Positions 34,004-58,031 are shown, counted from the stretch's first letter. The stretch is DNA of 64,000 nucleotides from an uncultured Saprospiraceae bacterium (GCA_964441245.1 CAYTVR010000004.1:15119-79118), one strand, 5' to 3'. Translations and numbers: made by a program. The notes: a model not told the origin generated them from the letters alone.

Positions 34004-34561
34004 TTAGAATATAGGTTCCCATATATTCATGACTCTCATCAATGCAGAAAGGGTATGTGGATGTTGAATTTTATTTTCTTGAACTAGTTTTTTCACTTCT
34101 GATATTGTAATTTCTAATAGGTCAATCGACTCTCCATCATCTAATTCAGTATCGTTTGTTCGTTCTACATTTAGCGCAAGCCAATGATGTATTTTACTAT
34201 CCATAAAAACAGGATTGCTCTGTACTGCTCCTAAATATTTCCAATCATTCGAAGTGAATCCGGTCTCTTCGCTCAATTCACGGATGGCTGCTTGCTGATG
34301 GTTTTCGCCTGCATCAACTAATCCACCTGGTAACTCAATAGTTTCTTCTTGTACTCCAAAACGTAATTGTTGTACCAAGAGCATTCGCTGCTTTGATGTC
34401 ATAGCGATCACATTTACTGAGTCCTGACTTTCTAATACCAATGCTTTGATTACTTTTCCGTTGCGTTTGTTTTTTTGAAAATCATATCGAATTTTGAAGA
34501 GCGGAATTTCTGGTCCTTCTTCACTTTTTAAAAGTTGCCAATTTTCTTTTTCGGGTAGCAT
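34004..34561 (-). CDS. NUDIX hydrolase (ADP-ribose pyrophosphatase-like)
   Basis: Nudix box GGLVDAGENHQQAAIRELSEETGF. Confidence 0.85.
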   Translation of the reverse strand: MLPEKENWQLLKSEEGPEIPLFKIRYDFQKNKRNGKVIKALVLESQDSVNVIAMTSKQRMLLVQQLRFGVQEETIELPGGLVDAGENHQQAAIRELSEETGFTSNDWKYLGAVQSNPVFMDSKIHHWLALNVERTNDTELDDGESIDLLEITISEVKKLVQENKIQHPHTLSALMRVMNIWEPIF

Positions 34562-38905: not shown

Positions 38906-39694
38906 ATGAAAAAAATTTTTACGCTTGCTCTTATTTTTACATTAACTTGGACTTCTGGCTATAGCCAAACGGCTCCAGATTTCACTTTCACAGATACGAA
39001 TGGAGACTCACATACCTTGTCTGAGGCGCTTGCTGAAGGAAAAGTGATTTTATTAGATTTCTTTTTTGTCAATTGTGGTTCTTGTATTAGTCTTGCTCCA
39101 GAAATTGACCAAATCATCGAAGATTATGAAGGGACTACGCTTGAAGTTTGGGCCATAAGTGATCGAGATTCTGATGTGGCCATCGAAAACAGTATTTTCA
39201 AATCTACTCACGAACACCACTTTACTGGTGGAAGTGCTGGAGGAGGAGCTGCTGCTGTCAATTTATTTGCAGGTAATTTCAATTTCACAGGATTTCCTAC
39301 TTATGCTGTTGTTTGTAATGATAATTCTATTACATGGGATATCTGGCCATTAACTGCCGGTGCAAATCAAATCAGAAGCAGATTAACTCCTGAGTGTGGT
39401 GTAGTGGAAACTTTGACCGCTGTATCCACTATTGAAGGAATGAGCGGTACTCAACTTTTTCCTAATCCAACCTCTACAGCCGCTACACTTGAATTTAATT
39501 TAGAAGAAAAAACGACTATCAGTATTGAGTTGGTCAATACTCTTGGCCAAGTGGTTCAGTCTATTTCTTCTCAAAATTATGACGCTGGAATGCAAAGCAT
39601 CAATATTGATGTTTCTTCTTTAGCAAAAGGAATTTATGCAGTAAACATGCGATCAAAAACGGGTACTCACACTATCCAGTTATCTACTCTTTAG
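38906..39694 (+). CDS. Thioredoxin-fold (TlpA/redoxin-like) protein with a T9SS C-terminal sorting domain
   Basis: Signal peptide, VILLDFFFVNCGSC (CxxC) and a C-terminal LFPNPTSTAATLEF...GIYAVNM CTD. Confidence 0.75.
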   Translation: MKKIFTLALIFTLTWTSGYSQTAPDFTFTDTNGDSHTLSEALAEGKVILLDFFFVNCGSCISLAPEIDQIIEDYEGTTLEVWAISDRDSDVAIENSIFKSTHEHHFTGGSAGGGAAAVNLFAGNFNFTGFPTYAVVCNDNSITWDIWPLTAGANQIRSRLTPECGVVETLTAVSTIEGMSGTQLFPNPTSTAATLEFNLEEKTTISIELVNTLGQVVQSISSQNYDAGMQSINIDVSSLAKGIYAVNMRSKTGTHTIQLSTL

Positions 39695-39932: not shown

Positions 39933-41405
39933 TTATACCACCCTTTTCGATACCGTATGTTTTGCTAAAATCCTTAGAGATTCTTTGAGTACTTCCGGAT
40001 CTTTTTGCATGGCCCAAAGTACATCTCTGGCGTATTTAGAACTTTTTTGATAATCAATAATAGGTGGCGGATAGGAACAATCTTCCAACTGGTAAAAAGT
40101 TCGCTCCATCAAGGTTACTTTCCAAGGTTCATGAATAAAAGCATCAGGCATCACTTTCAATTCTGGAACCCATTTTTTGATAAAAATCCCAGTTGGATCT
40201 TGCTCCTTCGATTGTTTGACAGGATTATAAATACGGACGGTATTGATTCCTGTCTCACCTGCTTGCATTTGTAATTGTGGAAAATGAATACCAGGTTCAA
40301 AATCTAAAAAAAGGCTAGCTAAATAAGGAGCGATGGCCTGCCAAGGAAGCCATAATTGTTGCACTGCAAAGGAAACAATCATGGCACGCATTCTAAAATT
40401 AATATATCCCGTTTCGATCAGACAACGCATCACTGCATCTACCAAAGGATAGCCCGTGTTTCCCGTTTTCCATGCCATTAGTTTTTTTTCATCAACTGAC
40501 TTTTCTAGTTTTGCGTAAGCTCGATTGACTGGACGAAATTCCATTTCACATTCCATTTCAAATTTTTGAATGAAGTGTCCTTGCCAACTCAAGCGAGACA
40601 TAAAAGCTGACAATTGTTTCTTGTGTTGTCCAGCTTTATACCTTTTTATACTCTGTTGATAAACTTGTCGGATTGACAAATTTCCCCAAGCCAAATAAGG
40701 AGACAATCGACTACATCCAGTTCTACTTTCTCGTGGTTTGGAAATACTACTCATATAATTTTCGACTCGATCGGTCAAAAACGAATCAAGCGTTTCCATT
40801 GCTTTTGTCATTCCTCCTTCTTGAAAGCGAATGGACTTTTCTTTAGTCGCCAATTCAAACGGATCAAATAAGGTCTCCAGGTTATGGATTCGGCTGTTGT
40901 TGACAAAAAGATGCGGTTCACCGACAAAAGTTAAGATGGGTTGATTCATATATTTGGACCAACTTTTTTTCCACCCATCTCGATTTTTCAAACCTCGAAT
41001 AACTCCATTATTTTGAAATTCTTGCCACTCAATTTTCTTTTTTTGACAAAATGTTTTAAACGACTTATCCCGATCATAGGTAATCTTCAATCCCGTTTCT
41101 TCACTTGAGTATACCGATTGTATATCTAAATATTGATCCAATGTTTCCATGGCCTCAGTCACTTCTAAATGCAGGGTCAATATTTTTGTATCATAAGCTG
41201 ATAAAGTTTGATTCATATCTTCAAGCGATTGCTGAATGAATCGAAAGTGACGTTCACTATAATGCTCATCTTTCATCAAAGAAGGTTCAAAACAATACAG
41301 CAACAAAACTGCATGACCATCCAATGCAGCATGATGTAAAGGAGGATGATCCTCTAATCGCAAATCTCTTTTTAACCAAACAATATTGACTTTCGCTTTT
41401 GGCAT
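39933..41405 (-). CDS. Cryptochrome/photolyase family protein (FAD-binding)
   Basis: The N-terminal [16 protein letters not shown] photolyase alpha/beta domain, [13 protein letters not shown], and the C-terminal FAD-binding region ([18 protein letters not shown]...NPVKQS). The subclass is not resolved. Confidence 0.8.
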
Positions 41406-41564
41406 AAGGAATTAGGTTCTCTTAATCTTTTGTTTTCTAAAAACACTCAACAAATATACACAAAATGTTTTAGACTTAAAACAAATTATTTCATCCCTAG
41501 TCCTAGATTTTGTATGAATAATTCGTTCTCTTTGTTTATATAAAGTCAATTTTTGAGTTAAATG

Positions 41565-41596
41565 CAAAAAAGCCTTACAAAATAAATTGTAAGGCT
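41565..41596 (-). terminator. Rho-independent terminator after tRNA-Leu
   Basis: The agccttacaa / ttgtaaggct stem has a T-run on the minus strand. Confidence 0.7.
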
Positions 41597-41620
41597 AATA
41601 ACAAAACGGTTTTGTTGTTG

Positions 41621-41703
41621 TACCCACGACTGGAGTCGAACCAGCACGTCCGTAGGACACTACCCCCTCAAGGTAGCACGTCTACCAATTCCGTCACGTG
41701 GGT
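41621..41703 (-). tRNA. tRNA-Leu (anticodon GAG), class II with a long variable arm
   Basis: Manually folded. Acceptor ACCCACG/CGTGGGT, U8, the AATTGGTAGA D-loop, anticodon stem CTACC/GGTAG with loop TTGAGGG, variable arm GTCC-TAC-GGAC, and the GGTTCGACTCC T-arm. CCA is not encoded. Confidence 0.9.
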
Positions 41704-41830
41704 AAATCTAAAGTGGTGACAAATTTACAAACAATATCTGGAAATAGAATAGTTCCCTTCAATAATTTAAATTTTACTAGGCTCCTCTAAAAATAAAATA
41801 GTATCTTGAAGTATAAATGACGTAATTTCT

Positions 41831-43825
41831 ATGTACCTAATCGGATATGACATCGGAAGTTCGAGTATCAAAACGGCTTTGATTCGTGCTGATAATCAAA
41901 AAGTTATTGGAATCACTAAATATCCAGAACAAGAAATGGATATGATTTCTCGGCAACGAGGTTGGGCAGAACAAGAACCCGAAATCTGGTGGCGTAATTT
42001 GTGTCTCGGTACAAAAAAATTGATTGCAAAACATAAAATCAATCCTAAAAAAATAAAGGGAATTGGGATCTCTTATCAAATGCATGGCTTGGTAGCCGTC
42101 AATAGTGATTTGCAAGTTTTGAGGCCATCGATTATTTGGTGCGATAGTCGTGCTGTTTCCATTGGCCAACAAGCTTTTAAGGAATTAGGTGAAGAATATT
42201 GTTTAAAAAATTTCCTCAATTCTCCTGGAAATTTTACTGCCTCCAAAATCAAATGGGTCAAAGACAACGAACCGACCGTCTATCAAAAAATTCATAAAAT
42301 TTTGCTCCCTGGTGATTTCATCGCTATGAAATTAACAGGCGAATTGAATACCACTATTTCAGGATTATCCGAAGGAGTACTTTGGGATTTTAAAAAGAAA
42401 AAATTAGCCACACCAATACTCAGTCATTTTGAAATTGATCCCTCACTTATTGCGGATATCACACCTACTTTTTCCCTTAGCGGAAAAGTTCATCAAACGG
42501 CTTCTGAGCAGACAGGTTTGGCCATCGGCACACCCGTTACTTATCGTGCAGGAGACCAACCTAACAATGCACTTTCATTAAATGTTTTGAATCAAGGTGA
42601 AGTCGCTGCGACCAGTGGTACTTCAGGAGTTGTTTATGGAATTGTAGACAAACCCGTTTATGACGAGCAATCAAGAGTCAATGCATTTGCACATGTCAAT
42701 TATGAAAATAATTTTGACCGCATCGGCATATTACTTTGTATTAATGGAGCAGGGATTCAATACAGTTGGATCAAACAACAAATCGCTCTAAGCGGTAAAC
42801 ATTACAATGATATGGAACGAATGGCGAGTACCGTTCCTGTAGGATCGGAAGGCATTTGTTTACTTCCTTTCGGGAATGGTTCAGAACGTATTTTCAATGA
42901 TCGAAATTTAGATGCACATATTTCCAATATTGCTTTTAATCGCCATACTCGGGCACATCTTTATCGCGCTTCTTTGGAAGGAGTTGCCTTCTCTTTTGTC
43001 CATGGAATTAATTTGCTAAAAAGCATGGGACTAAAGGTAGATGTTTTAAAAGTGGGGAATGATAACATGTTCCAATCAAAAATATTTTCAGATACGATCG
43101 CCACCTTGCTCGGCATTCAAATTGAAGTTTTCAATACCACTGGTGCAATTGGAGCAGCACATGCTGCTGGAGTGGCCATTGGCGTTTATGATACCATAGA
43201 AAATGCACTAAAAGAAACTCAACCAGAAACTGTTTTTGAGCCTACGCTCAACTATGGAATGTGTTCTCAAGCCTACAACTATTGGTTAGCTTCCTTAAAT
43301 AAAGTCTTAAACAAAACAAGTGGAAAAAACAATCCATCTATCGCTCAAAAGCTGCGAGATGAAAATCAAAATTATAAAAAAGAATTAAAAATAAAACATC
43401 AACTGATCACTTCTCAAGCTGCTCAGATTGATGGCCAAAATCAGTTATTGAGTTCCATCAAAAAGTCGATTGCGAATTTAGAAAAATCAAGCCAAGATCC
43501 AGACGTTTTACAAGAAGTAAAAAATCTAAAAAAAATAATTCGAAAAGAACAAAGTATCGATAAAACACAGGATATTTTTGAAGAGCATTTTGATTTATTA
43601 AATGATCAATTCATTCATCACATTAGTACTTCTTTTCCTTCACTTTCCTTTGAAGAATTGAAGATGTGTGCCCTTCTAAAACTCAAATTATCGACCAAAG
43701 AAATGGCTACTCAACTTAATATCTCCACTCGAGGAGTAGAAACAAAACGGTATCGCTTACGCAAAAAGCTAAACTTACCAAAAGGAATTAAGCTTGTTCA
43801 ATATTTTAAAAATCTTCCTTCTTAG
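41831..43825 (+). CDS. FGGY-family kinase (xylulokinase paralog) fused to a coiled-coil linker and a C-terminal LuxR/GerE-type HTH
   Basis: Residues 1-~495 align colinearly with the downstream XylB (MYLIGYDIGSSSIK, GWAEQEPE, RPSIIWCDSRA, YRAGDQPNNALS, GILLCINGAGIQYSW, NTTGAIGAA). Residues ~505-600 are heptad-like and Lys/Gln-rich. The C-terminus FPSLSFEELKMCALLKLKLSTKEMATQLNISTRGVETKRYRLRKKLNL is the Bacteroidota LuxR-type output module. Confidence 0.85.
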   Translation: MYLIGYDIGSSSIKTALIRADNQKVIGITKYPEQEMDMISRQRGWAEQEPEIWWRNLCLGTKKLIAKHKINPKKIKGIGISYQMHGLVAVNSDLQVLRPSIIWCDSRAVSIGQQAFKELGEEYCLKNFLNSPGNFTASKIKWVKDNEPTVYQKIHKILLPGDFIAMKLTGELNTTISGLSEGVLWDFKKKKLATPILSHFEIDPSLIADITPTFSLSGKVHQTASEQTGLAIGTPVTYRAGDQPNNALSLNVLNQGEVAATSGTSGVVYGIVDKPVYDEQSRVNAFAHVNYENNFDRIGILLCINGAGIQYSWIKQQIALSGKHYNDMERMASTVPVGSEGICLLPFGNGSERIFNDRNLDAHISNIAFNRHTRAHLYRASLEGVAFSFVHGINLLKSMGLKVDVLKVGNDNMFQSKIFSDTIATLLGIQIEVFNTTGAIGAAHAAGVAIGVYDTIENALKETQPETVFEPTLNYGMCSQAYNYWLASLNKVLNKTSGKNNPSIAQKLRDENQNYKKELKIKHQLITSQAAQIDGQNQLLSSIKKSIANLEKSSQDPDVLQEVKNLKKIIRKEQSIDKTQDIFEEHFDLLNDQFIHHISTSFPSLSFEELKMCALLKLKLSTKEMATQLNISTRGVETKRYRLRKKLNLPKGIKLVQYFKNLPS

Positions 43826-43896
43826 ACAAAATCTTTAAGACTTTAGTTTTTTTTAATGAGTCCATTATTTTGTTTTCTAATTTCTTTCGATATCAG

Positions 43897-43904
43897 TAAT
43901 TTTG
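43897..43904 (+). promoter_or_regulatory. TAnnTTTG (-7-like) element upstream of the multihaem/TPR gene
   Basis: TAATTTTG lies 43 nt upstream of the ATG at 43947. A TTTG sits at 43869-43872. Confidence 0.35.
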
Positions 43905-43946
43905 ACCATAAATCCAAGCTGATGATGTTATCTAAATAATCCATAA

Positions 43947-45881
43947 ATGTTTAAAAATCAAAAAATCATTTATTGTATTCTACTCCTTAGTGCATTTGTT
44001 TTGATGTACTGTGGTCGATTCAATTCTCAACAGGTTGATGTGAGTCAATTCAAAAATATCAGAGACTCCGTGGATTATGTTGGCATGAATACTTGTCGTT
44101 CTTGTCATAATGAGATTCACCAAACATTTATACATACTGGAATGGGCCGTTCTATAGATCGGGCTTCCGCCGAAAAAAGTGACGCAACTTATACGGGGCA
44201 TGAATTAGTCTACGATGAAAACAAGAATTTATATTATCGCCCTTTTTTCAAAGATAGCATCATGTATATCACCGAATTTAGAATTGAAAATGGGGATACC
44301 ACGCATCAACGAACAGAAAAAATCAGCTACATTATTGGTTCAGGTCATCATACCAATTCTCATATTATCGATATCAATGGTTATATTTTTCAAGCGCCCA
44401 TCACCTATTACACCCAAAAAGGAGAATGGGATTTAGCACCCAGTTTTGATAAAGAAAATACCCGCTTCAATCGGACACTTACCCCTGAATGTATTACCTG
44501 CCACAATCATTTCCCAAAGTTTGTCGAAGGTTCCATCAATCGTTTTTCTGATATGCCAACAGGTATTGAGTGTGAAAGATGTCATGGTCCTGGTGAAGTA
44601 CATGTCAAAGAAAAACTAGCTGGAAATATCATCGATACTTCTAAATACATTGATTATAGTATTGTTAATCCTAGGCATTTACCGCGAGACCTTCAAATGG
44701 ATTTATGCCAGCGGTGTCACCTACAAGGAGTCGCTGTTTTGGAAGAAGGAAAAAGCTTTTTTGATTTTCGCCCAGGTATGAAATTAGAAGAAGTCGTCAA
44801 TGTATTTTTGCCCAGAATGACCAACTCTGATGAAAAATTTATAATGGCTTCTCAAGCAGATCGATTGCGACTCAGTCCATGTTATCAATTATCAGAAATG
44901 AGTTGCTTGACTTGCCACAATCCACACATAAGTGTCCAACAAAGCACTGCTCAAAATTATAACCAGACTTGTAATTCTTGTCATACTACTGACCAACAAA
45001 TCAAATGTAGTGCTGCTCAAAATATTCGAAACGAAAAGGCTGATAATTGCATCGCTTGCCATATGCCACCTTCTGAAAGCATCGATATTCCACACGTCAA
45101 TATTACTGATCATTACATTAGCAAATTTGCAGCACAGCGCGGAGAAAAAATAGCGCAAGAAGAGCAAGAAAAAATTGTCCAATTTTTAGAACTAGAAATT
45201 TTGACTAAAGATAATCCAACAGATTTAGACATGGCCAGAGGCTACATTGCACTTTATGATAAATTTCTTTCATCGCCAGCCATGCTTGATTCTGCCGCAC
45301 ATTATTTGTCTTTGATTTCTCAAGAATCTTATCCTATTTTTAAAACCAAAATTCATTACTTCTTTTCCAAACAAGACTATGCTAAAATCGTCAACCTAGC
45401 TACTGATCATCCTAATGAAAGTATAAAAGATGGCTGGACAGCTTATCGAATTGGAGAGGCATTAGTCAATCAGAATGAACAAACCAAAGCCTTACTCTAT
45501 TTTAAAAGAGCCATCCAATTAGACAAATATAATTTAGAATTTCAAGAAAAACTAGGATCACAATACATGGAATTAAGATACCTACAAGAAGCCAAAAAAA
45601 CTTTTGAATTTATTTTACAAGAAAATCCAAAGCGAAAATTAGCACTCAATAATCTTGGTTTCACCAATGTACTTTTAGGCAATTTGACTAAAGGACTAGA
45701 CCTTTATGACCAAGCCATCGCACTAGATCCAGATTACGAAATCGCACTAATGAATAAAGTAGCCATCCTCATACAAGACAAGAATAATATCAATACCGTA
45801 AAAAAATTGATTCAAAATATTCTCAAAATAAACCCAGAAAACAAACAAGCACAAGAAGTCCTCAATCAACTCAGTTTATAA
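43947..45881 (+). CDS. Exported multihaem c-type cytochrome domain (7 CxxCH) fused to TPR repeats
   Basis: The CxxCH motifs are CRSCH, CITCH, CERCH, CQRCH, CLTCH, CNSCH and CIACH. N-terminal signal/anchor. The C-terminal ~200 aa are TPR-like (ALLYFKRAIQLDKYN, LDLYDQAIALDPDYE). Confidence 0.8.
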   Translation: MFKNQKIIYCILLLSAFVLMYCGRFNSQQVDVSQFKNIRDSVDYVGMNTCRSCHNEIHQTFIHTGMGRSIDRASAEKSDATYTGHELVYDENKNLYYRPFFKDSIMYITEFRIENGDTTHQRTEKISYIIGSGHHTNSHIIDINGYIFQAPITYYTQKGEWDLAPSFDKENTRFNRTLTPECITCHNHFPKFVEGSINRFSDMPTGIECERCHGPGEVHVKEKLAGNIIDTSKYIDYSIVNPRHLPRDLQMDLCQRCHLQGVAVLEEGKSFFDFRPGMKLEEVVNVFLPRMTNSDEKFIMASQADRLRLSPCYQLSEMSCLTCHNPHISVQQSTAQNYNQTCNSCHTTDQQIKCSAAQNIRNEKADNCIACHMPPSESIDIPHVNITDHYISKFAAQRGEKIAQEEQEKIVQFLELEILTKDNPTDLDMARGYIALYDKFLSSPAMLDSAAHYLSLISQESYPIFKTKIHYFFSKQDYAKIVNLATDHPNESIKDGWTAYRIGEALVNQNEQTKALLYFKRAIQLDKYNLEFQEKLGSQYMELRYLQEAKKTFEFILQENPKRKLALNNLGFTNVLLGNLTKGLDLYDQAIALDPDYEIALMNKVAILIQDKNNINTVKKLIQNILKINPENKQAQEVLNQLSL

Positions 45882-45990
45882 ATAACATTTGGATATTGAG
45901 TAAAAGATGCTGAATGACCTTTATAAGGATAAAACGCGTTATAGAAGCATTCAAAATTCTCGCATTCAAATCATTCAACCACTCACCCTG

Positions 45991-46009
45991 TTGACGTAGT
46001 TTTGACGTA
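45991..46009 (+). promoter_or_regulatory. Tandem direct repeat TTGACGTA-N3-TTGACGTA upstream of xylB (candidate regulator binding site)
   Basis: Two exact 8-mers with an 11-bp period (45991-45998 and 46002-46009), about 165 nt upstream of the xylB ATG. Confidence 0.35.
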
Positions 46010-46174
46010 TAAAATTAAAATTTAGGCGTGTTTTTGCAGTAGCAAAAGATTTTAGAACTCCCACTTAATCCCCTTTCTTTGTTTTGTATTTATTCAATCT
46101 TTCAAAATAATATTTAGAGAATCAGTCATTATCCTAGATTAATTTTGAATTATCTAACATCTAATCTGAAAACT

Positions 46175-47680
46175 ATGTATTTAATAGGATACGATATAGG
46201 AAGCTCCTCCATTAAAGCCGCATTGATTGAAGCCAAAAGTGGTAAAACGCTGGATTTAGTTCAACATCCTTCTCAAGAAATGAACATCATTTCAAAACAA
46301 ACGGGTTGGGCAGAACAAGAACCTGAACTTTGGTGGGAATCTGTTTGTATCGCCACCAAAATGTTATTAAAAAATACGCAGATTGATCCTAACAAAATAA
46401 CAAGTATTGGAATCGCTTATCAAATGCACGGTTTGGTCGTCGTAGACGAAAACCAAGAAGTATTGCGACCTTCTATTATTTGGTGTGACAGTCGAGCTGT
46501 CGAAATTGGTAATGATGCGTTTGAAAATATTGGCCCAGAAAAATGTTTAGCCACTTATCTTAATTCACCCGGAAATTTTACGGCTTCTAAACTCAAATGG
46601 GTCAAAGAAAATGAACCTGAACGGTATAGCAAGATTCATAAAATAATGTTGCCCGGAGATTTCATTGCCATGAAACTAACGGGTAAAATTTGTACCACTC
46701 CTTCTGGTTTATCTGAAGGCGTTTTATGGGATTTTAAAAATAACAGCACTGCAGATGTTTTGTTGAATCATTATGGTATTTCAAAAAACCTTATTCCTGA
46801 CATAGTCGATACTTTTTCCGTCCAAGGACAACTTACCAAAAAAGCAGCTGAAGCTACAGGACTAAGTACACAAACAGTAGTGGCCTATCGTGCAGGTGAC
46901 CAACCCAACAATGCCTTATCTCTAGGTGTTCATCAACCCAATGAAGTCGCTGCGACTTGCGGTACATCTGGCGTAATCTATGGCATTGCAGATCAATATA
47001 AATATGATCCACAATCTAGAGTAAATAGTTTTGCGCACGTCAATCATAGTCCAAACGCACCACGCGTCGGCATATTGTTGTGTATCAATGGAGCAGGCAT
47101 CCAATACTCATGGGTAAAACAACAAATGGCTTTGGATGGAACCACTTATGATGACATGGAAAAGATACTCAGTGAAATCCCAATTGGTTCCGATGGACTG
47201 AGAATTATTCCTTTCGGAAATGGTGCTGAACGAATGTTATCCAATAAGGAAACCGGCGCACAAATGAACAACTTACAATTCAACAGACACACCAGAGCAC
47301 ACTCTTTTAGAGCTGCGGTGGAAGGAGTTGCTTTTTCTTTTTGTTACGGCTTTCAATTGATGCGCCCACTGGGATTAGAACCCAAAGTGATCAAAGTAGG
47401 CAACGACAATTTATTTCAATCTGCTACTTTTTCTAATACGATTGCGAACTTATTGAATTGTAAAATTGAAGTCGTCAACACCACTGGAGCTATTGGAGCA
47501 GCCAAAGCATCGGGTGTCGCACCGGGTATTTATACTTCATTAGAAGGCGCTTTTCAGCAAATGGAAGTTATCAAAACTTATCAAGCTTCTGAACAAAGAT
47601 CAGCTTATCAGCAAGCTTATGAACTATGGCATCAAGACTTAAAACATTTACTAAATGGAAAAACAAATCAAGATGCTTAA
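46175..47680 (+). CDS. xylB: Xylulokinase
   Basis: FGGY kinase motifs throughout, located directly upstream of xylA. The ATG at 46175 (MYLIGYDIG) is preferred over the TTG at 46145. Confidence 0.9.
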   Translation: MYLIGYDIGSSSIKAALIEAKSGKTLDLVQHPSQEMNIISKQTGWAEQEPELWWESVCIATKMLLKNTQIDPNKITSIGIAYQMHGLVVVDENQEVLRPSIIWCDSRAVEIGNDAFENIGPEKCLATYLNSPGNFTASKLKWVKENEPERYSKIHKIMLPGDFIAMKLTGKICTTPSGLSEGVLWDFKNNSTADVLLNHYGISKNLIPDIVDTFSVQGQLTKKAAEATGLSTQTVVAYRAGDQPNNALSLGVHQPNEVAATCGTSGVIYGIADQYKYDPQSRVNSFAHVNHSPNAPRVGILLCINGAGIQYSWVKQQMALDGTTYDDMEKILSEIPIGSDGLRIIPFGNGAERMLSNKETGAQMNNLQFNRHTRAHSFRAAVEGVAFSFCYGFQLMRPLGLEPKVIKVGNDNLFQSATFSNTIANLLNCKIEVVNTTGAIGAAKASGVAPGIYTSLEGAFQQMEVIKTYQASEQRSAYQQAYELWHQDLKHLLNGKTNQDA

Positions 47681-47834
47681 CACATTTTTAAATATAAGAC
47701 TTAGTAATTCGATACTTTCAATCTTTTTCTTAATTTTTGCCTTTTAAATAAGCATAGACAGCAATTGATTATAGATTCAACTCAAAGAATAGTAGTTTTA
47801 AAAAAATTATTTCAAATAAATAAAAACGTTACAA

Positions 47835-49142
47835 ATGGCCTATTTTCCCAAAATAAAGAAAATCCCATATCTCGGTCCTGATTCAAAAGAAATGATGGCA
47901 TTCACACACTACGATGAAAATAAAGTGGTGCTAGGAAAAACGATGAAAGAACATTTTAGATTCGCCGTTTCCTATTGGCATAGTTTCAACGGAACAGGAG
48001 CTGACCCATTCGGACCTGGCACAAGAATTTTACCTTGGAATAAAGGTAGAGATGCTTACAAAAGGGCCAAGAATAAAATGGATGCTGCGTTCGAATTCAT
48101 CAGCAAATTAGGTATTCCTTTCTATTGTTTTCATGATGTAGATTTGATCGATGAAGGGGGCAGCATTGCTGAATATGAAAAACGAATGAAGTTCATTACA
48201 GATTATGCTTTGAAAAAACAAAAGGAAACAGGCATCCAACTATTATGGGGAACGGCTAATTTATTTTCTCATCCACGTTATATGAATGGTGCTTCTACCA
48301 ATCCTGATTTTAATGTGGTGGCTTACGCCGGAACACAAGTCAAAGCATGTATCGATGCAACCATCAAATTGGGTGGACAAAATTATGTTTTCTGGGGTGG
48401 CCGAGAAGGTTATATGTCTTTGCTCAATACAGACATGAAACGAGAAAAAGATCACTTGGCGACCTTCCTAAAAATGGCTCGTGACTACGGTCGAAAAAAA
48501 GGATTCAAAGGAACTTTCTTGATCGAACCTAAGCCAATGGAACCCTCCAAACACCAATATGATTTTGATGCGGCTACCTGTATTTCATTTTTACAAGAGT
48601 ATGACCTCATGGATGATTTCAAACTCAACATTGAAGTCAATCATGCTACCTTAGCTAGCCATACTTTTGAACATGAGTTACAAGTTTCTGCGGATGCAGG
48701 AGTATTGGGAAGTATCGACGCCAACAGAGGAGATTATCAAAATGGTTGGGATACCGATCAATTTCCTGTTGATTTATTTGAATTAGTCCAAGCGATGTTG
48801 GTCATTGCTCAACATGGTTTAGGAACTGGAGGGGTCAATTTTGATGCAAAAGTTAGAAGAAATTCAACAGACATGGCAGATATGTTTGTCGCACATATTT
48901 CAGGAATGGACGTTTTTGCCAGAGCATTGTTAATCACTGAAGATTTACTGAACAACAGCGATTTTTCTAAAATGAGAAAAGAGCGTTATGCTAGTTTTGA
49001 TAAAGGCAATGGCGCTAAATTCGAAAAAGGAAAAATGACCTTAGATACTTTGCGTAAACATGCCATGAAAAATGGAGAACCCAATCAGATCAGCGGTCAA
49101 CAAGAAATCTACGAACGATTGATTAATATGTATATTAAATAA
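47835..49142 (+). CDS. xylA: Xylose isomerase
   Basis: [34 protein letters not shown] and [10 protein letters not shown] are canonical class II XylA motifs. Confidence 0.95.
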
Positions 49143-49343
49143 GATAATAATGATTGATGTGAAAAATTCTAAACAAGAAAATTTTGCATCTCCCTGTATA
49201 TACCTAAGAATCCTTATGTGACGAATGATATTTTTTTCGAAAAGTATTATTCGTCCACAATTTTACTCCTTAACTAAGAGCTTGTCGAAAATATTGATTT
49301 TCAATTAAAAAAATTAGACAGACTCTAAAGCAATACATCAACT

Positions 49344-50972
49344 ATGAATGAAGCAACTCCATTATTTGAAACCCTAGATTGGGTCGTTTTAGGACTGTAC
49401 TTTTGTGCGCTTTTAGCCATCGCAGTATGGGTCATGAGACAAAAAAATGAAAACACAGAAGATTACTTTTTAGCAGGAAAAAATGTCGGTTGGTTTGTAA
49501 TCGGTGCTTCTATCTTTGCTTCTAATATTGGATCTGAACATGTAGTCGGACTTGCAGGTACCGGTGCAGAATCCGGAATGCCAATGGCACATTACGAACT
49601 CCATGCTTGGATTGTACTCTTGCTTGGTTGGCTCTTTCTCCCCTTCTATATGCGCAGCGGTGTTTTTACCATGCCCGAATTTTTGGAAAAAAGATTTGAC
49701 TCTAGATCTAGATGGTTCCTTTCTATTCTATCCATTGTTGGTTATGTTTTGACGAAAGTTTCTGTAACCATTTATGCAGGAGGAATTGTTGTTTCTCAAT
49801 TATTAGATATTCCATTTTTATATGGAGCTTTTGGAACGGTCATCATCACCGGACTCTATACCATACTTGGAGGAATGCGAGCAGTGGTTTATACCGAAGC
49901 ATTACAAACGGTAGTTTTGATCGTCGGATCACTGATTATTACTGCATTAGGTTTGAATGCCATTGGTGGTTTTGCTGAATTAAAAGCAACCGTAGGTAGC
50001 GAACATTTTAATATGTGGCGACCTGCTTCTGATCCTGAATATCCTTGGACGGGAATGGTCTTTGGTGGAACAATTGTAGGCATCTGGTATTGGTGTACCG
50101 ATCAATATATTGTACAAAGAACCTTAGCCGCTGCTGATATCGAAATTGGAAGGCGAGGAGCTATTTTTGGTGCCTATCTGAAAATTTTGCCAATCTTTAT
50201 TTTCTTAGTACCTGGCATCATTGCTTATGGTTTGAAGCAAAAAGGATTAATGACTTACGAAAAAAGTGATCAGGTATTTCCAGCATTGGTGGCTTATCTT
50301 CTACCAGTTGGTTTGAAAGGATTAGTTGCTGGTGGATTGATGGCCGCGTTGATGAGTTCATTGGCTTCTGTTTTCAATTCCTCTTCTACGCTATTCACTG
50401 TTGATATTTTTAAAAAATTATATCCAGATACCCCTGAAAAAAAATTAGTTAATATTGGTCGACTATCCACTGTCTTTGTCGTTATATTAGGAATGCTTTG
50501 GATTCCCATCATGCAAAAAATTGGTGGAGGAACCTTGTATAAATATTTGCAAAGTGTACAATCTTATATTGCTCCACCAATCACCACGGTTTTCCTTCTA
50601 GGAATTTTGTGGAAACGAGTCAACGCACAAGGAGCCATTGCTACTTTGCTATTTGGATTAATCATGGGAACCTTGAGAATCATGGCTGAACTGAGTGTCG
50701 TAGAAGGCGGAAGTGGATTCATACATACTTTTGCGACCATCAATTTTGCACACATGGCCATCATCATGTTCCTTTGTTGTGTTGTGGTTTGTATCGGTGT
50801 GAGTTTGGCAACGCCTCCTCCATCACAAGCGCAGATAGCTGGTTTAACTTTTGGTACATTGACCGAAGAACAAAAAGCTTCAGCTAAAAATAGTTATTCA
50901 AAAGTAGACTTGATCGCTTCAGCAGTATTGGTCATAGTGATCATTGGTATCCTTGCTTATTTTACTGGATAA
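49344..50972 (+). CDS. Sodium:solute symporter (SGLT/SSF family), probable xylose/glucose transporter
   Basis: About 13-14 TM segments with SSF motifs (YFLAGKNVGWFVIGASIFASNIGSEH, GGMRAVVYTEALQ). Located next to xylA. Confidence 0.85.
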   Translation: MNEATPLFETLDWVVLGLYFCALLAIAVWVMRQKNENTEDYFLAGKNVGWFVIGASIFASNIGSEHVVGLAGTGAESGMPMAHYELHAWIVLLLGWLFLPFYMRSGVFTMPEFLEKRFDSRSRWFLSILSIVGYVLTKVSVTIYAGGIVVSQLLDIPFLYGAFGTVIITGLYTILGGMRAVVYTEALQTVVLIVGSLIITALGLNAIGGFAELKATVGSEHFNMWRPASDPEYPWTGMVFGGTIVGIWYWCTDQYIVQRTLAAADIEIGRRGAIFGAYLKILPIFIFLVPGIIAYGLKQKGLMTYEKSDQVFPALVAYLLPVGLKGLVAGGLMAALMSSLASVFNSSSTLFTVDIFKKLYPDTPEKKLVNIGRLSTVFVVILGMLWIPIMQKIGGGTLYKYLQSVQSYIAPPITTVFLLGILWKRVNAQGAIATLLFGLIMGTLRIMAELSVVEGGSGFIHTFATINFAHMAIIMFLCCVVVCIGVSLATPPPSQAQIAGLTFGTLTEEQKASAKNSYSKVDLIASAVLVIVIIGILAYFTG

Positions 50973-55983: not shown

Positions 55984-57159
55984 TTATTTTTCTATATTTT
56001 GAACAAATGTGCTTGGCGATTGGCCGGTGAGTTTTTTAAAAGTACGGTTAAAAGTCGCTTTACTATTGAATCCGCTTTCAAATGCAATAGCCAAGAGGGA
56101 ATAGGTAGAAGTTTTACCTTCTTTGATTTCATTTTTAACTCGCTGAACGCGGAATGAATTCACATAATCATTAAAATTCATCCCTGCTTCATGATTGATT
56201 ATCCTGGACAAAATTCCTGGTGGCATTTCCATCATTTTTGCCAATCCAGCTAAAGTCAATCGAGCATCTAAGTAAGGGGTTTCTTTTTCCATCAACTGAT
56301 TCAAGATTTGCATTTGTTGACTAAATATGGGAAGATCGACCTTTTCTAAACTGGTTTCATCCTCTCTTTTCAAATCCATTCCTCCAGCCTCAATATTATG
56401 TTGATGTAATTTATTCACATCAAATAAAAATCCATAAACACCCAAATAAATTAAGGAAAGTCCCGCAACCAAATGTCCCCACCAATATCCTTTATATCCC
56501 AAATTAATGATTCGATCATTGATCTCGTCTAAAACAAACATTAAAAAAAACAGAGAGGTAAACGTAGCTAGAAAATTTTGAAGCCAACGCAATTCGACCT
56601 CAAATTGATTGGAAAATAATTCTTGAGTTTTCTTCCGATAATCTAAATAAATCCAAATGGCCAGCACCAAATAAATCCCCACTGACACATCCATTAAAAT
56701 ACTGAATCCAAAACCAATATAATTAGCCATTTGGCTAGAAAATAATTCTCCATTCTGTACTTCATCAAAACCACTTTGATTTACATCATAGGCATAAATA
56801 CTAAGTCGGTAAATGACAAATAACAACTGAGGTACAAAATGCCAAACATCTTTTTTTGTGAACTTAAAGTCTGGTCGAATCACACTTTTCACATAAAAAT
56901 AAATCAGAGGACCAATGATCAAAAAACTCGAAATCAAAAAATAATTAATTTTTGTATTCGGATAATTATCGTACCAAGCCATAAAACCAATCGTATACGT
57001 TGTTAGCTCATAGGTATGCAGTAGGAGCACTCCTCCCAACAGAAAATCAGAGATGTTTTTTTTACGAAAGTACCTCGTAAATAATAGTGCACTAAAAACA
57101 AGGCCACATACATAGAGTATCGCTAATGGTGTACTGTACCAACTAAAAGTAGGAAACAT
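55984..57159 (-). CDS. Membrane-anchored AraC-family transcriptional regulator
   Basis: The N-terminal ~250 aa are polytopic and hydrophobic. The C-terminal AraC HTH reads LAGLAKMMEMPPGILSRIIN...IAFESGFNSKATFNRTFKKLTGQSP. Confidence 0.8.
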   Translation of the reverse strand: MFPTFSWYSTPLAILYVCGLVFSALLFTRYFRKKNISDFLLGGVLLLHTYELTTYTIGFMAWYDNYPNTKINYFLISSFLIIGPLIYFYVKSVIRPDFKFTKKDVWHFVPQLLFVIYRLSIYAYDVNQSGFDEVQNGELFSSQMANYIGFGFSILMDVSVGIYLVLAIWIYLDYRKKTQELFSNQFEVELRWLQNFLATFTSLFFLMFVLDEINDRIINLGYKGYWWGHLVAGLSLIYLGVYGFLFDVNKLHQHNIEAGGMDLKREDETSLEKVDLPIFSQQMQILNQLMEKETPYLDARLTLAGLAKMMEMPPGILSRIINHEAGMNFNDYVNSFRVQRVKNEIKEGKTSTYSLLAIAFESGFNSKATFNRTFKKLTGQSPSTFVQNIEK

Positions 57160-57479
57160 AAAAATAAATTAAACGCATAATTTTATCCAAAATGAAAATC
57201 TAATTTTTTAATTCCAAAGTATTGTTTTTTTAGATTTCTTATAAACATCAACTGAAGGTAATAGTTTTTGAACATTATTTTTTTATTTTGACCTTGTTCA
57301 TCTAATTTACATTGAGGCTCATCTATAAAATTTCATTCCGCTTCTTAGAATGTGGCATTTTTCTTTCAAAAATATTTTTCACTATTTTTAAAGTAATTTC
57401 GAATCTTATCCGTCTACATAATTAAGTGCTAAGACAAAAGAAAGAAAAAAGAGGGATAAAAGGCAGAAAGCCACAAAGA

Positions 57480-58031
57480 ATGACCGAAAAACAACAGCGA
57501 ACCATTACCGGAGTCATCAAAGAATATAACCGAAAGCTATTTGGTTTTATTCGAGGGCGTGTATCCAATCCTGCAGATGCGGAGGATATACTTCAAGATG
57601 TATGGTATCAATTGAGCCGTGTAGGAAATATTGATTCGATTGAACAAATAAGTGGATGGCTTTTTCGAGTGGCTCGAAATAGATTAACCGATGATTATCG
57701 AAAACAAAAACCGGATTTAATTGAAGACCAAGCTTATGAAAACGACGACGAAGATCTTTATTTGAAAGATATTTTAATGGCGGACTCGCCAAGTCCAGAA
57801 GAAGAAAATTTAAAAGAATTGTTCTGGGAAGAGTTGTTCGAAGCCCTAGGTGAGTTACCTGAAAACCAACGGAATATTTTTGTTTGGAATGAATTGGAAG
57901 ACCAAACTTTTCAGGAGATCGCAGATCGAACGGGGACGAATATAAAAACCTTAATTTCAAGAAAAAGATACGCTGTTCAACATTTGCGAGAACGCTTGGA
58001 AAGCTTGTATCAGGAATTTAATATCGACTAG
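57480..58031 (+). CDS. ECF-type RNA polymerase sigma-70 factor
   Basis: Region 2 (AEDILQDVWYQL...WLFRVARNRLTDDYRK) and region 4 (LPENQRNIFVWNELEDQTFQEIADRTGTNIKTLISRKRYA). The ATG at 57480 is preferred over the GTG at 57426. Confidence 0.85.
   Translation: MTEKQQRTITGVIKEYNRKLFGFIRGRVSNPADAEDILQDVWYQLSRVGNIDSIEQISGWLFRVARNRLTDDYRKQKPDLIEDQAYENDDEDLYLKDILMADSPSPEEENLKELFWEELFEALGELPENQRNIFVWNELEDQTFQEIADRTGTNIKTLISRKRYAVQHLRERLESLYQEFNID

Follow-up and report, generated by a model that had tools for sequence, protein, structure and literature searches.

Results

The locus and its neighbourhood

We analysed a stretch of 64,000 nucleotides (the 64-kb window) from an uncultured Saprospiraceae bacterium, in which the following genes make up the locus of interest.

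41831..43825, + strand: xylulokinase-GerE fusion gene, a single open frame of 664 aa
43947-45881: multihaem cytochrome c/TPR gene of 644 aa, between the fusion gene and xylB
46175..47680, + strand: stand-alone xylulokinase gene xylB, a predicted regulated target (Pfam, BLASTP, motifs)
47835..49142, + strand: xylose isomerase gene xylA, a predicted regulated target (Pfam AP_endonuc_2 / xylose isomerase-like TIM barrel)
49344..50972, + strand: sodium:solute symporter gene (SSF family), a predicted regulated target (Pfam SSF, 287.9 bits)

An earlier note on this DNA had read the fusion as a kinase-derived one-component regulator of the xylose locus, a reading that the present analysis supports in all parts that could be checked. 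It had also placed the fusion gene at the head of the xylB-xylA-SSF cluster; the two do not adjoin here, as the cytochrome c/TPR gene, which is unrelated, intervenes. The likely start of xylB is the ATG at 46175, the mechanical ORF opening at TTG 46145. The window xylA is 63-70% identical to the xylA genes that adjoin fusion genes in other loci, and the SSF symporter is the probable xylose transporter, a gene for which was found co-linear with xylA at 14 of the 46 well-flanked fusion loci.

No other regulator adjoins the cluster, in keeping with the earlier note; an AraC-type gene and an ECF sigma factor gene, 5-6.5 kb past the symporter, come nearest. No NrtR was found near the xyl cluster in the 64-kb window, the sole NUDIX protein of which (34004-34561, 185 aa) is too short to include a winged HTH and is encoded 7 kb away. 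An Rfam scan of 41300-49500 returned only a tRNA, so the conserved intergenic elements of the region do not represent a known riboswitch or leader. Scanning for sigma-70-type promoters and terminators gave counts no different from those of shuffled sequences, which is expected with Bacteroidota promoters and is uninformative.

When the neighbourhoods of fusion genes in other genomes were compared, xyl genes were present within 10 kb in 31 of the 46 well-flanked loci (directly downstream in 22) and absent over that distance from the other 15. A stand-alone XylB is encoded within 10 kb of the fusion gene in 25 of the 46, the window included, and one clade has the order (GH3)-fusion-xylA-symporter without a second xylB within 10 kb. 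There is no second copy of the C-terminal output module described below in the window, nor within 10 kb on either side of any fusion locus.

Domain layout of the fusion protein

Pfam searches and an AF2 model give the domain order as FGGY xylulokinase, coiled-coil/helical segment and GerE/LuxR-type HTH, and the encoding DNA can be divided as follows.

41831..43315, + strand: xylulokinase (FGGY) sensor/enzyme domain, aa 1-495 (Pfam FGGY_N/FGGY_C, PDB alignment, Foldseek)
43337..43489, + strand: long helix, a putative dimeric coiled coil, aa 503-553 (AF2, hydrophobic periodicity, homology)
43499..43633, + strand: conserved three-helix segment, aa 557-601, containing FEEHFDLLNDQF...FPSLS (FEEHFDLL...) (AF2, conservation)
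43640..43810, + strand: GerE/LuxR-type four-helix HTH, aa 604-660, with recognition helix STRGVETKRYRLRKKL (Pfam, AF2 superposition)

It can be seen that all three expected domains lie in one open frame and that each scores over its own Pfam cutoff: FGGY_N at aa 2-245 (151.7 bits), FGGY_C at aa 259-449 (43.7 bits) and GerE (PF00196) at aa 604-658, with 25.5 bits, the gathering cutoff being 23.5. The C-terminal segment thus scores as an HTH, and it also has the LuxR/GerE fold. Precomputed Pfam assignments give GerE for only some of the relatives, and the GerE sequence match is therefore marginal. The N-terminal 495 aa are the FGGY kinase, and Pfam gave no Reg_prop or Y_Y_Y match in the fusion, which is without a signal peptide, propeller or transmembrane helix. 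Likewise, no hydrophobic transmembrane segment is apparent in the AF2 secondary structure, where the kinase fold begins at the N-terminus. Neither a ROK match nor a Nudix domain was detected with Pfam, the kinase being of the FGGY type and the HTH C-terminal and GerE-type.

The C-terminal output module

The kinase is followed by a segment that had been described as a heptad-like linker of about 100 aa and for which a dimeric coiled coil had been suggested. We found that it is real and helical. Residues 503-553 form one long helix in the AF2 model, with a hydrophobic period that peaks at 3.5 residues, as for a putative dimeric coiled coil; this helix carries the conserved signature KNKELA...KNELL..IK and has its homologue in the juxtamembrane helix of Y_Y_Y-GerE proteins. 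Three further helices (557-573, 577-590 and 593-601) make up a segment that is conserved throughout the fusion family and in its BguR-type relatives. The description as a linker nevertheless falls short, as the whole is a conserved signalling module of BguR-type regulators. A Foldseek search with a model of the tail alone gave no structural relative in the PDB for the coiled coil plus three-helix segment.

The helices of the HTH are at 607-617, 622-629, 633-646 and 655-660 in the AF2 model, which superposes on the DNA-binding domains of LiaR, DosR, VraR, NarL, RcsB and GerE at 2.1-2.5 A over 56-58 columns (TM 0.70-0.80). Residues S632, R634, G635, E637, T638, R640, R642 and K646 of the HTH are invariant in the fusion family. 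Sequence-specific DNA binding by the fusion is predicted, indirectly, from the co-occurrence of the module with a conserved heptamer operator (see below).

Residues 506-660 are homologous to the cytoplasmic part of Y_Y_Y/TPR/PHO4/GyrI-GerE proteins (13,745 representative proteins at E<=1e-3) and align with the C-terminal ~150 aa of Y_Y_Y proteins of 950-990 aa with E values of 1e-19 to 1e-24. This bears out the statement that such an HTH module usually terminates TPR/transmembrane regulators of Bacteroidota, those of the Y_Y_Y type among them. Motifs kept between the fusion tail and these relatives are KNKELA..., W..F..HFD..H..F and RGVET.RYRLRKK, and in the relatives the transmembrane helix sits just ahead of the homologous coiled coil. 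We conclude that, as judged by homology, the tail is the entire output portion that BguR-type one-component regulators have on the cytoplasmic side of the membrane.

The kinase domain is a XylB paralogue with intact catalytic motifs

An identity of 55-65% with XylB had been estimated by eye, and BLASTP of the fusion against the XylB ORF at 46145-47680 gave 59% over 501 aa with 3 gaps. The junction between kinase and tail coincides exactly with the end of the XylB homology. The domain is a full-length XylB paralogue, and the DIGSS and AGDQPNN motifs are kept, as had been claimed; both are near-invariant among 121 family members. In the window copy D7, QMHG (83-86), GDQPNN (241-246), TSGTSG (261-266) and GNDNMFQS (409-416) are intact, and QMHG, GDQPNN, TSGTSG, GNDNMFQS and TTGAIGA agree with stand-alone XylBs except for G262S and L413M. 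The nearest sequence in the PDB is E. coli XylB (2ITM), in which the catalytic Asp pair D6 and D233 corresponds to D7 and D242 of the fusion. Xylulokinases (3IFR, 2ITM and 5VM1) were also the best Foldseek matches, with TM 0.83-0.87, the alignment obtained with the full-length query covering the kinase part only.

The fusion scored 293.2 bits against TIGR01312, the NCBIfam XylB equivalog model with a cutoff of 380.25 bits; however, the neighbouring bona fide XylB, at 304.1 bits, was also below it, so that the model gives XylBs of this Bacteroidota lineage scores that are too low. Fusions keep 120 of the 141 positions that are conserved in stand-alone XylBs, and only two positions discriminate the groups. 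At position 262, in the phosphate-2 loop, fusions have S or C where stand-alone XylBs have G. The fusion kinase is probably still an enzyme in the window organism.

Three sub-clades of fusions have altered phosphate-1/phosphate-2 loops (D7E/Q with TSAESG; ISDTSG; TSSASG), a change seen in none of 26 stand-alone XylBs. Only the ATP/phosphate loops are degraded in these sub-clades, the sugar motifs and the tail being kept, and in the one that was checked for it, that of Reichenbachiella, the operator-like box upstream of the gene (see below) is kept also. Retention of these features alongside degraded loops argues that the selected function is sensing and regulation.

Distribution and origin of the family

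The same architecture occurs in at least 120 protein clusters and in about 63 species genomes, the carriers being many marine and soil Bacteroidota. Flavilitoribacter nigricans DSM 23189, Fulvivirga kasyanovii JCM 16186, Marinoscillum furvescens DSM 4134 and Reichenbachiella carrageenanivorans are among them, and closed genomes with the fusion include CP106735, OZ244943 and OZ257241. The 120 listed clusters are of 643-664 aa and cover 96-100% of the query, and the nearest relative among the matches listed is 85% identical. In the databases these proteins are always annotated simply as "carbohydrate kinase". The kinase domains of the fusions are monophyletic (63/63) against 26 stand-alone XylBs, with a mean identity of 65% as opposed to 58% for the stand-alone enzymes. 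The fusions are a conserved family of single origin, linked to xyl genes in 31 of 46 well-flanked loci.

The possibility that the gene is an artefact, with a frameshift, a missed stop or an assembly join bringing xylB together with a separate regulator gene, is refuted by the conservation of the fusion. No point in its favour was found, and the architecture is uninterrupted in the 120 listed clusters and in dozens of independent assemblies that include cultured strains, type strains and closed chromosomes; the coincidence of the junction with the point where the XylB homology stops and the monophyly of the family also stand against it.

We found no characterised FGGY-HTH fusion in the searchable literature, in line with the earlier note, which knew of no FGGY-LuxR example, and a review of hemicellulase regulation (PMC10766802) does not mention one. 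A paper on xylan regulation in Vibrio (PMC12125979) was set aside as not relevant, since its regulator XylRA is an AraC/LacI-type XylR.

A tandem-heptamer candidate operator

Upstream of the fusion gene and of xylB there are direct repeats of a heptamer resembling TGACGTA, with a period of 11 bp.

41807..41824, + strand: candidate operator at the fusion gene, TGAAGTA-taaa-TGACGTA, 11-bp period, ending 6 nt before the ATG
45992..46009, + strand: candidate main operator of xylB-xylA-symporter, TGACGTA-gttt-TGACGTA, a perfect pair ~165 nt upstream of the xylB ATG
46024..46041, + strand: second, weaker pair, AGGCGTG-tttt-TGCAGTA, overlapping the conserved TTTTTGCAGTAG element

The weaker pair starts 32 bp after the first and is in helical phase with it. 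With up to two mismatches allowed, exactly two tandem boxes were found in the 64-kb window, one at the fusion gene and one at xylB, against a mean of 0.2 in block-shuffled sequence. TGACGTA was the top 7-mer of an unbiased count in both sets of upstream sequences; 90 of 94 sites have the orientation of the gene, and the flanks at +/-11 repeat the motif. Across 66 loci there were 85 tandem pairs at a spacing of 11 but only 3-10 at other spacings between 7 and 15, and 69 of the 85 fall in the two target regions. Nearly all pairs are at the fusion gene, xylB/xylA, GH3 or SusC genes.

In 40 of 62 loci there is an equivalent box no more than 120 bp ahead of the fusion ATG, and in 37 of 41 loci the end of the box and the ATG are 0-29 nt apart. 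Boxes right after the fusion stop codon or upstream of xylB/xylA were seen in 23 of 64 loci, together with most of the matches scored as 'elsewhere', and boxes are also found upstream of GH3 and SusC genes. At target operons the boxes are found 116-383 nt before the start codon, where they precede conserved promoter-like elements and do not cover them. A TGRCGWA-N4-TGCAGTA pair is conserved in many loci, the TGnAGTA heptamer starting 43-44 bp after the first heptamer in 16 of 22 cases and 32-34 bp after it in 4 of 22. We considered whether the tandem box might be the Bacteroidota -7 element (TAnnTTTG) and rejected this, the spacer fitting only ~15 of 36 boxes upstream of the fusion gene.

Fusion genes that have no xyl gene nearby also have the box, which is thus tied to the fusion gene itself, and the same box flanks Y_Y_Y-GerE genes that encode the same recognition helix without a kinase. 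In 18 of the 66 loci no box was detectable. Box-less clades have SYRGAET or SIRGMET in the recognition helix as against S[VIT]RGVET elsewhere, but this co-variation with the operator is only partial: locus L035 (SYRGTET) has a four-heptamer array upstream of a GH3-fusion-xylA operon, and a box is present at L057 (RGMET). An alternative operator for the box-less clades could not be defined, the sequences being too few or too similar. Independent comparative support for a regulatory role comes from the xyl linkage described above and from the conserved tandem-heptamer operator before both the fusion gene and xylB/xylA.

Discussion

The fusion is probably a cytoplasmic one-component regulator of xylose/xylan utilisation that has as its sensor a whole, and probably still catalytic, xylulokinase. 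It would have originated when an ancient xylB duplicate was joined end to end with all of the cytoplasmic output module from a membrane regulator of the BguR type. The coiled coil would keep the protein dimeric or higher-oligomeric, allowing its HTH domains to bind head-to-tail TGACGTA heptamers that, at 11-bp steps, would lie on one face of the DNA. We infer that the ligand is xylulose/ATP: D-xylulose, the product of XylA, would together with ATP bring about the lobe closure known from other FGGY kinases, and this closure of the two lobes may alter the presentation of the HTH domains to the DNA. Such coupling of kinase sensing to HTH output is unlikely to proceed by a rigid helical relay, residues 496-502 at the join between kinase and coiled coil being variable and of low confidence in the model.

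Most likely the fusion represses its own gene and activates xylB-xylA-symporter. Since the box abuts the fusion start codon, its occupancy should block RNA polymerase and result in negative autoregulation. At xylB-xylA-symporter the phased four-heptamer array, upstream of promoter-like elements, would instead lead to activation, by analogy with BguR, and the GH3 and SusC genes of other genomes may be activated in the same way. It should be noted that promoter positions were read from sequence only, so that the choice between activation and repression is uncertain. A symmetric coiled-coil dimer fits inverted repeats more naturally than direct repeats, which counts against the proposed model, as do the 18 of 66 loci in which no box was detectable and the 15 of 46 well-flanked loci that lack a xyl gene over 10 kb. 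MalT of E. coli, which likewise has a LuxR-type C-terminal HTH and is activated by a sugar plus ATP, acts as an oligomer on asymmetric direct-repeat boxes upstream of sugar-utilisation promoters. Its sensor, however, is a STAND NTPase with a TPR-like domain and not a metabolic kinase, and its boxes differ in sequence and spacing.

A rather unlikely alternative is that the kinase domain is a pseudo-enzyme that binds xylulose (or xylose) and nucleotide without catalysis in vivo, the stand-alone XylB taking all of the flux. The proximity of a stand-alone XylB in 25 of the 46 well-flanked loci, including the window, would fit, as would the systematic difference at position 262 and the independent alteration of the phosphate loops in three fusion sub-clades with their sugar motifs preserved, one of which, that of Reichenbachiella, retains its upstream box. 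However, every catalytic motif is kept in the window copy and in most family members, conservation is higher in the kinase domain of the fusions than in the true enzyme, and in the (GH3)-fusion-xylA-symporter clade the fusion may be the only xylulokinase. It is unlikely that the fusion is a classical repressor everywhere, sitting on the heptamers in the absence of sugar and released by xylulose/ATP to de-repress its own gene and the xyl operon. The box close before the fusion ATG (37/41 loci) is in a repressive position, and most sugar regulators that derive from enzymes, ROK and NrtR for example, are repressors; but the boxes of target operons are ahead of the promoter-like elements, and BguR, the only characterised protein with such an output module, is an activator with >80-fold induction.

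The heptamer and the recognition helix are common to many paralogous regulators, and a paralogue encoded at another place in the genome could occupy the boxes as well. In its full form, this would make the fusion mainly an enzyme with a tail for oligomerisation or localisation, its gene being a target of a BguR-type paralogue encoded elsewhere. We regard this as very unlikely, even though other genomes have identical boxes next to Y_Y_Y-GerE regulator genes and the module is so abundant in Bacteroidota (13,745 representative proteins), because the invariant HTH residues of the family are hard to explain without DNA binding, the box accompanies the fusion gene even where xyl genes are lacking nearby, and neither the window nor the 10 kb around any fusion locus encodes another copy of the module. 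A bolder extension of the regulator model, possible but put forward tentatively, is that the fusion is a flux-sensing bifunctional xylulokinase/transcription factor in which turnover of xylulose and ATP, and not occupancy, sets the oligomeric state of a coiled-coil-tethered GerE array on phased TGACGTA, with repression of its own gene and activation of xylose/xylan genes as the outcome; this heptamer might then be the long-missing operator of thousands of BguR-, TPR- and transporter-linked GerE regulators of Bacteroidota.

Several known systems resemble parts of the regulator we propose. BguR is an experimentally shown activator of glycan-utilisation genes (BguR preprint) in which an alpha-helical linker followed by a GerE HTH forms the cytoplasmic output. 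The resemblance is drawn through proteins of BguR architecture (Reg_prop/Y_Y_Y, transmembrane helix, linker, GerE), which align to aa 506-660 of the fusion with the E values given above, and not through the sequence of BguR itself; such proteins also have a TGACGTA/TGAAGTA tandem box beside their genes, as at the fusion. BguR, however, is membrane-anchored and senses in the periplasm by tandem beta-propellers and Y_Y_Y, whereas the fusion is cytoplasmic, with an ATP-dependent sugar kinase as sensor. RbkR (PMC5397151) is an archaeal bifunctional riboflavin kinase/regulator whose dual function has been shown experimentally and whose DNA binding is modulated by the substrate and product of the kinase; it regulates its own gene as well as the pathway in which its substrate is used, with operators predicted by comparative genomics. 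It differs in having a CTP-dependent riboflavin kinase, of unrelated fold, in place of an FGGY/ASKHA kinase, and a winged helix in place of GerE, and it lacks a coiled-coil module; the dual function of the archaeal protein is proven, whereas that of the fusion is only inferred.

ROK regulators (NagC, Mlc and Bacillus XylR; PMC3553997), some of which control xylose genes, also use a sugar-kinase-like ASKHA fold as the ligand sensor for sugar catabolism. They belong to another kinase family, carry a winged HTH at the N-terminus and are in general no longer catalytic, whereas the fusion keeps its catalytic motifs intact and has a C-terminal HTH of the LuxR type, placed after a coiled coil. The NrtR-type XylR of Bacteroides/Flavobacteria (PMC2330246) occupies the equivalent position (regulator-xylB-xylA-transporter) in the same phylum and combines an enzyme-derived (Nudix) sensor with a DNA-binding domain in pentose control; its Nudix sensor and winged helix are unrelated to the domains of the fusion, and the operators differ. 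This XylR was not seen at the xylose locus in Saprospiria/Cytophagia. The fusion may also belong with the bifunctional enzyme-regulators or 'trigger enzymes' (RbkR, BirA, NadR, PutA), which unite a competent enzyme and a DNA-binding domain in a single polypeptide that regulates the pathway of the enzyme; its architecture, intact motifs and pathway-linked candidate operator would fit.

The xylulokinase-GerE fusion is most likely a sugar-sensing switch for xylose-utilisation genes, and we found no earlier description of such a switch. If the model is correct, a regulator of xylose catabolism in Saprospiria and Cytophagia has been identified, and the "carbohydrate kinase" annotation of the fusions in databases could be corrected. 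It would also define a new route to a regulator, in which the periplasmic sensor and transmembrane helix of a membrane one-component regulator were exchanged for a whole metabolic enzyme to give a cytoplasmic protein, and would clearly illustrate, in nature, both the modular exchange of sensors and the evolution of enzymes into regulators. A compact xylulose/xylose-responsive protein with a defined operator would be a candidate biosensor or inducible switch for Bacteroidota. Finally, the predicted TGACGTA 11-bp tandem repeat is apparently common to BguR-type regulators, which are abundant, barely studied and concerned with the use of marine and soil glycans.

A xylulokinase fused to a GerE-type output module

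The fusion gene is a single ORF whose 664-residue product was described in the earlier note as a full FGGY kinase domain joined to a C-terminal helix-turn-helix (HTH), with an estimated 55-65% identity to the XylB encoded 2.3 kb downstream and with the DIGSSS and AGDQPNNALS regions kept. All of this was borne out: FGGY_N, FGGY_C and GerE each score above their Pfam cutoffs, all kinase motifs are intact, and in a 501-aa BLASTP alignment containing three gaps the two proteins are 59% identical, the homology stopping exactly at the end of XylB. The placement of the gene at the head of a xylB-xylA-SGLT cluster calls for one correction: a 644-aa cytochrome gene intervenes.

Features of the fusion, its product (aa) and its neighbourhood
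38906-39694, +, neighbouring gene, thioredoxin-like protein with T9SS sorting tail
39933-41405, -, neighbouring gene, photolyase
41571-41596, terminator-like hairpin after the tRNA-Leu(GAG) gene
41620-41703, -, tRNA-Leu(GAG), 104 nt upstream of the predicted operator at the fusion gene
41831-43825, +, xylulokinase-GerE fusion gene, single ORF, 664 aa
aa 2-245, FGGY_N, Pfam 151.7 bits, above curated cutoff
aa 259-449, FGGY_C, Pfam 43.7 bits, above curated cutoff
aa 503-553, long helix, AF2
aa 557-601, three short helices, AF2
aa 604-658, GerE, Pfam 25.5 bits against a cutoff of 23.5
aa 607-660, four-helix HTH, AF2
43947-45881, +, multihaem cytochrome c/TPR gene (Pfam), 644 aa, between the fusion and xylB-xylA-symporter
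55984-57159, -, neighbouring gene, AraC-type regulator
57426-58031, +, neighbouring gene, ECF sigma factor

The cytochrome is lipoprotein-like, with seven CXXCH haem motifs counted in the translation and a C-terminal TPR domain. No link to the xyl cluster was seen for the thioredoxin-like, photolyase, AraC-type or ECF sigma neighbours in the window.

The fusion is widespread and forms a single clade

A similarity search of 5.8 billion proteins returned at least 120 clusters of fusion homologues of 643-664 aa. Among the matches listed, query coverage was 96-100% and identity 57-85%; the sources were Saprospiraceae, Lewinellaceae, Chitinophagales MAGs, Reichenbachiella, Cyclobacteriaceae, Flavilitoribacter and Phaeodactylibacter, and every one was named merely 'FGGY family carbohydrate kinase' or 'xylulokinase'. 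Scanning one genome per species with the alignment of the fusion's C-terminal tail (aa ~506-660) as query gave 80 loci, about 63 of which carry a complete fusion, type strains and closed chromosomes among them. The architecture is thus widespread, and the frameshift or assembly join considered in the earlier note does not account for it.

In a neighbour-joining tree of 63 fusion kinase domains and 26 stand-alone XylBs, all 63 fusions form one clade apart from the XylBs. Mean identity is 65% between fusion orthologues versus 58% between stand-alone XylBs, the fusion being the higher in 97% of locus pairs. Together these results point to one ancient duplication and fusion, kept by strong purifying selection.

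The tail is related to the output module of BguR-type regulators

An AF2 model (mean pLDDT 83.9) places a long helix with a hydrophobic period of 3.5 residues ahead of three short helices and the HTH, which superposes on the NarL, LiaR, DosR, VraR, RcsB and GerE domains at 2.1-2.5 A; this agrees with the GerE score in identifying the C-terminal segment as an HTH. No PDB structure resembling the helical part preceding the HTH was found. The proposed ~100-aa heptad-like linker is consistent with the modelled helix, but homology to other regulators spans the entire tail, beyond the HTH, so that the whole is an output module and not just a linker.

An exhaustive search found 13,745 representative proteins with tail homology at E<=1e-3. 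These include proteins of 950-1000 aa that have Reg_prop/Y_Y_Y sensors and a single TM helix, in which the module forms the cytoplasmic end, and TPR proteins, as had been supposed for this HTH. A PHO4/PiT phosphate transporter and a GyrI-like small-molecule-binding domain also carry the coiled-coil/GerE module (P0198, 615 aa, and P0253, 306 aa), and would represent a transporter-regulator and another cytoplasmic version of the module. BguR of Formosa agariphila, a Y_Y_Y/TM/linker/GerE protein, is an essential transcriptional activator of the laminarin PUL, with >80-fold induction (2026 preprint). The tail homology argues that the fusion is a cytoplasmic derivative of this class, with a xylulokinase in place of the periplasmic sensor and TM helix.

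A tandem heptamer is the candidate operator

In an unbiased k-mer count, TGACGTA ranked top both upstream of the fusion gene (40 of 64 loci) and upstream of the downstream xyl gene (24 of 39 loci), and 90 of the 94 exact heptamers in these target regions lie in gene orientation. Because the flanks at -11 and +11 have the same consensus, the element is a tandem direct repeat with an 11-bp period. When pairs were counted on both strands of 1.06 Mb from 66 non-redundant loci, allowing up to two mismatches, 85 were found at spacing 11 versus 3-10 at each other spacing from 7 to 15; 42 of the 85 fall in the 120 bp before the fusion ATG (in 40 of 62 loci), 27 within 450 bp past its stop, and the other 16 mostly upstream of stand-alone xylB. 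The window has just two such boxes, against a mean of 0.2 in block shuffles.

Predicted operators in the window
41807-41824, predicted operator of the fusion gene, TGAAGTAtaaaTGACGTA, ending 6 nt before the ATG
45992-46009, predicted operator of xylB, TGACGTAgtttTGACGTA, ~165 nt before the xylB ATG
46024-46041, weaker heptamer pair, 32 bp beyond the pair at 45992-46009

TTG 46145 is the start of the mechanical xylB ORF, but with MYLIGYDIGSS as the conserved N-terminus the real start is likely to be ATG 46175. Upstream of the fusion, the tRNA and hairpin confine the promoter to roughly 41704-41806. In related loci the operator lies immediately 3' of the fusion stop codon, and for this reason the cytochrome gene resembles a lineage-specific insertion in the regulator-xylB spacer. 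Across loci a TGnAGTA heptamer recurs 43-44 or 32-34 bp past the first heptamer, a spacing that puts four heptamers on one helix face. Where xylAB are not adjacent, the boxes lie upstream of genes for SusC-like transporters and GH3 glycosidases. The box-bearing intergenic regions matched no known RNA family.

The same TGACGTA/TGAAGTA tandem box with 11-bp period occurs beside Y_Y_Y-GerE (BguR-type) regulator genes, at loci chosen solely for encoding such a tail relative and not for the box: in intergenic regions of Flammeovirga (L064-L068, L071), Chitinophaga (L078, L081) and Ferruginibacter (L079). The Flammeovirga box is in the intergenic region common to the regulator, an MFS sugar transporter and a GH43 beta-xylosidase, with a further box upstream of a SusC; that of Chitinophaga is upstream of a GH5/CBM6 gene. 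It is thus the HTH module, with its almost unchanging recognition helix RGVET[KRS]RYRLRKK, that the box tracks, and not the sensor. Fusion genes with no xyl gene nearby also have the box, and no other carrier of the output module is encoded in the window or within 10 kb of any fusion locus. We conclude that there is strong comparative evidence that the fusion HTH binds the box, which may be the family-wide operator of the BguR-type class.

The kinase domain ranges from intact to altered

The nearest solved sequence to the fusion kinase is E. coli XylB (2ITM, E 3e-39), and its nearest folds by Foldseek are the xylulokinases 3IFR, 2ITM and 5VM1 (TM 0.83-0.87); D7 and D242 align with the Asp pair D6 and D233 of E. 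coli XylB. Fusions retain 120 of the 141 positions that are at least 95% conserved in stand-alone XylBs, and only positions 262 (phosphate-2 loop) and 413 discriminate the two groups. On balance, we lean towards catalysis being retained.

In three independent sub-clades the ATP/phosphate loops alone are altered (D7E/Q with TSAESG; ISDTSG; TSSASG), at loci L018, L024, L021, L042 and L014 (the Reichenbachiella sub-clade), L061, L076 and L082-L084, and L023 and L026. In each of the three, the tail and both sugar motifs, QMHG and GDQPNN, are preserved, and the upstream box is still present in the Reichenbachiella sub-clade. No stand-alone XylB among the 26 shows comparable changes. The three sub-clades may represent natural steps by which an enzyme-regulator becomes a pure sensor. 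Another clade (L033, L035, L041, L046, L047, L052, L060) has the order (GH3)-fusion-xylA-symporter (SSF), with the fusion at the usual place of xylB and no second xylB within 10 kb. Here the recognition helix begins SYRGAET or SYRGTET, not S[VIT]RGVET, and a heptamer array occurs in L035 only, upstream of the GH3 gene. Set against each other, these clades suggest a graded family, from probably bifunctional to probably sensor-only, whose common denominator seems to be a regulatory role.

Proposed mechanism

In 37 of 41 loci the ATG of the fusion gene follows the end of its box by 0-29 nt, a placement that must overlap the core promoter or leader and implies negative autoregulation, whereby the protein would repress its own gene. 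At xylB/xylA the array is separated from the start codon by 116-383 nt and is followed by the conserved promoter-like elements TTTTTGCAGTAG and TTTCTTTGTT; this placement, with the activator role of BguR, favours activation of xylB/xylA from the upstream array. Resting on geometry and analogy, these signs of regulation are held with modest confidence. The signal would be D-xylulose plus ATP, acting through FGGY lobe closure, an assignment we regard as somewhat favoured. E. coli XylB and glycerol kinase are established examples of such closure. At the junction, residues 496-502 vary and are modelled by AF2 with low confidence; coupling by quaternary rearrangement seems likelier than through a rigid helical relay. 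Head-to-tail sites would be an unexpected target for a coiled-coil dimer.

Comparison with known regulators

The searchable literature holds no description of an FGGY-HTH fusion, in line with the earlier note, which knew of no characterised FGGY-LuxR protein. Known or predicted xylose regulators of Bacteroides and Flavobacteria are of the NrtR type, in the order nrtR-xylB-xylA-xylT (PMC2330246), and those of other phyla are AraC/LacI- or ROK-type; none of these is encoded beside the xyl cluster of the window, which upholds the view that no other regulator is recognisable at the cluster. By descent, the fusion is nearest to BguR-type proteins in its output module and to XylB in its sensor, although the sensor and TM features that define BguR are missing from it. 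By logic it resembles MalT and the ROK regulators, but it falls outside the definition of the latter, as it does that of NrtR. It is also like RbkR, in which a kinase doubles as a regulator and both substrate and product affect DNA binding (PMC5397151). The fusion is best classed as a new architecture among one-component regulators derived from enzymes.

The proposal that it regulates the xylose locus is strengthened by conservation, phylogeny and the predicted operator, and we consider it likely that the fusion binds DNA and regulates the xylose regulon. Although widespread, the architecture is undescribed, and it supplies predicted DNA sites that are directly testable; its predicted operator may reveal the operator code used by a class of regulators that is very large and has scarcely been studied.
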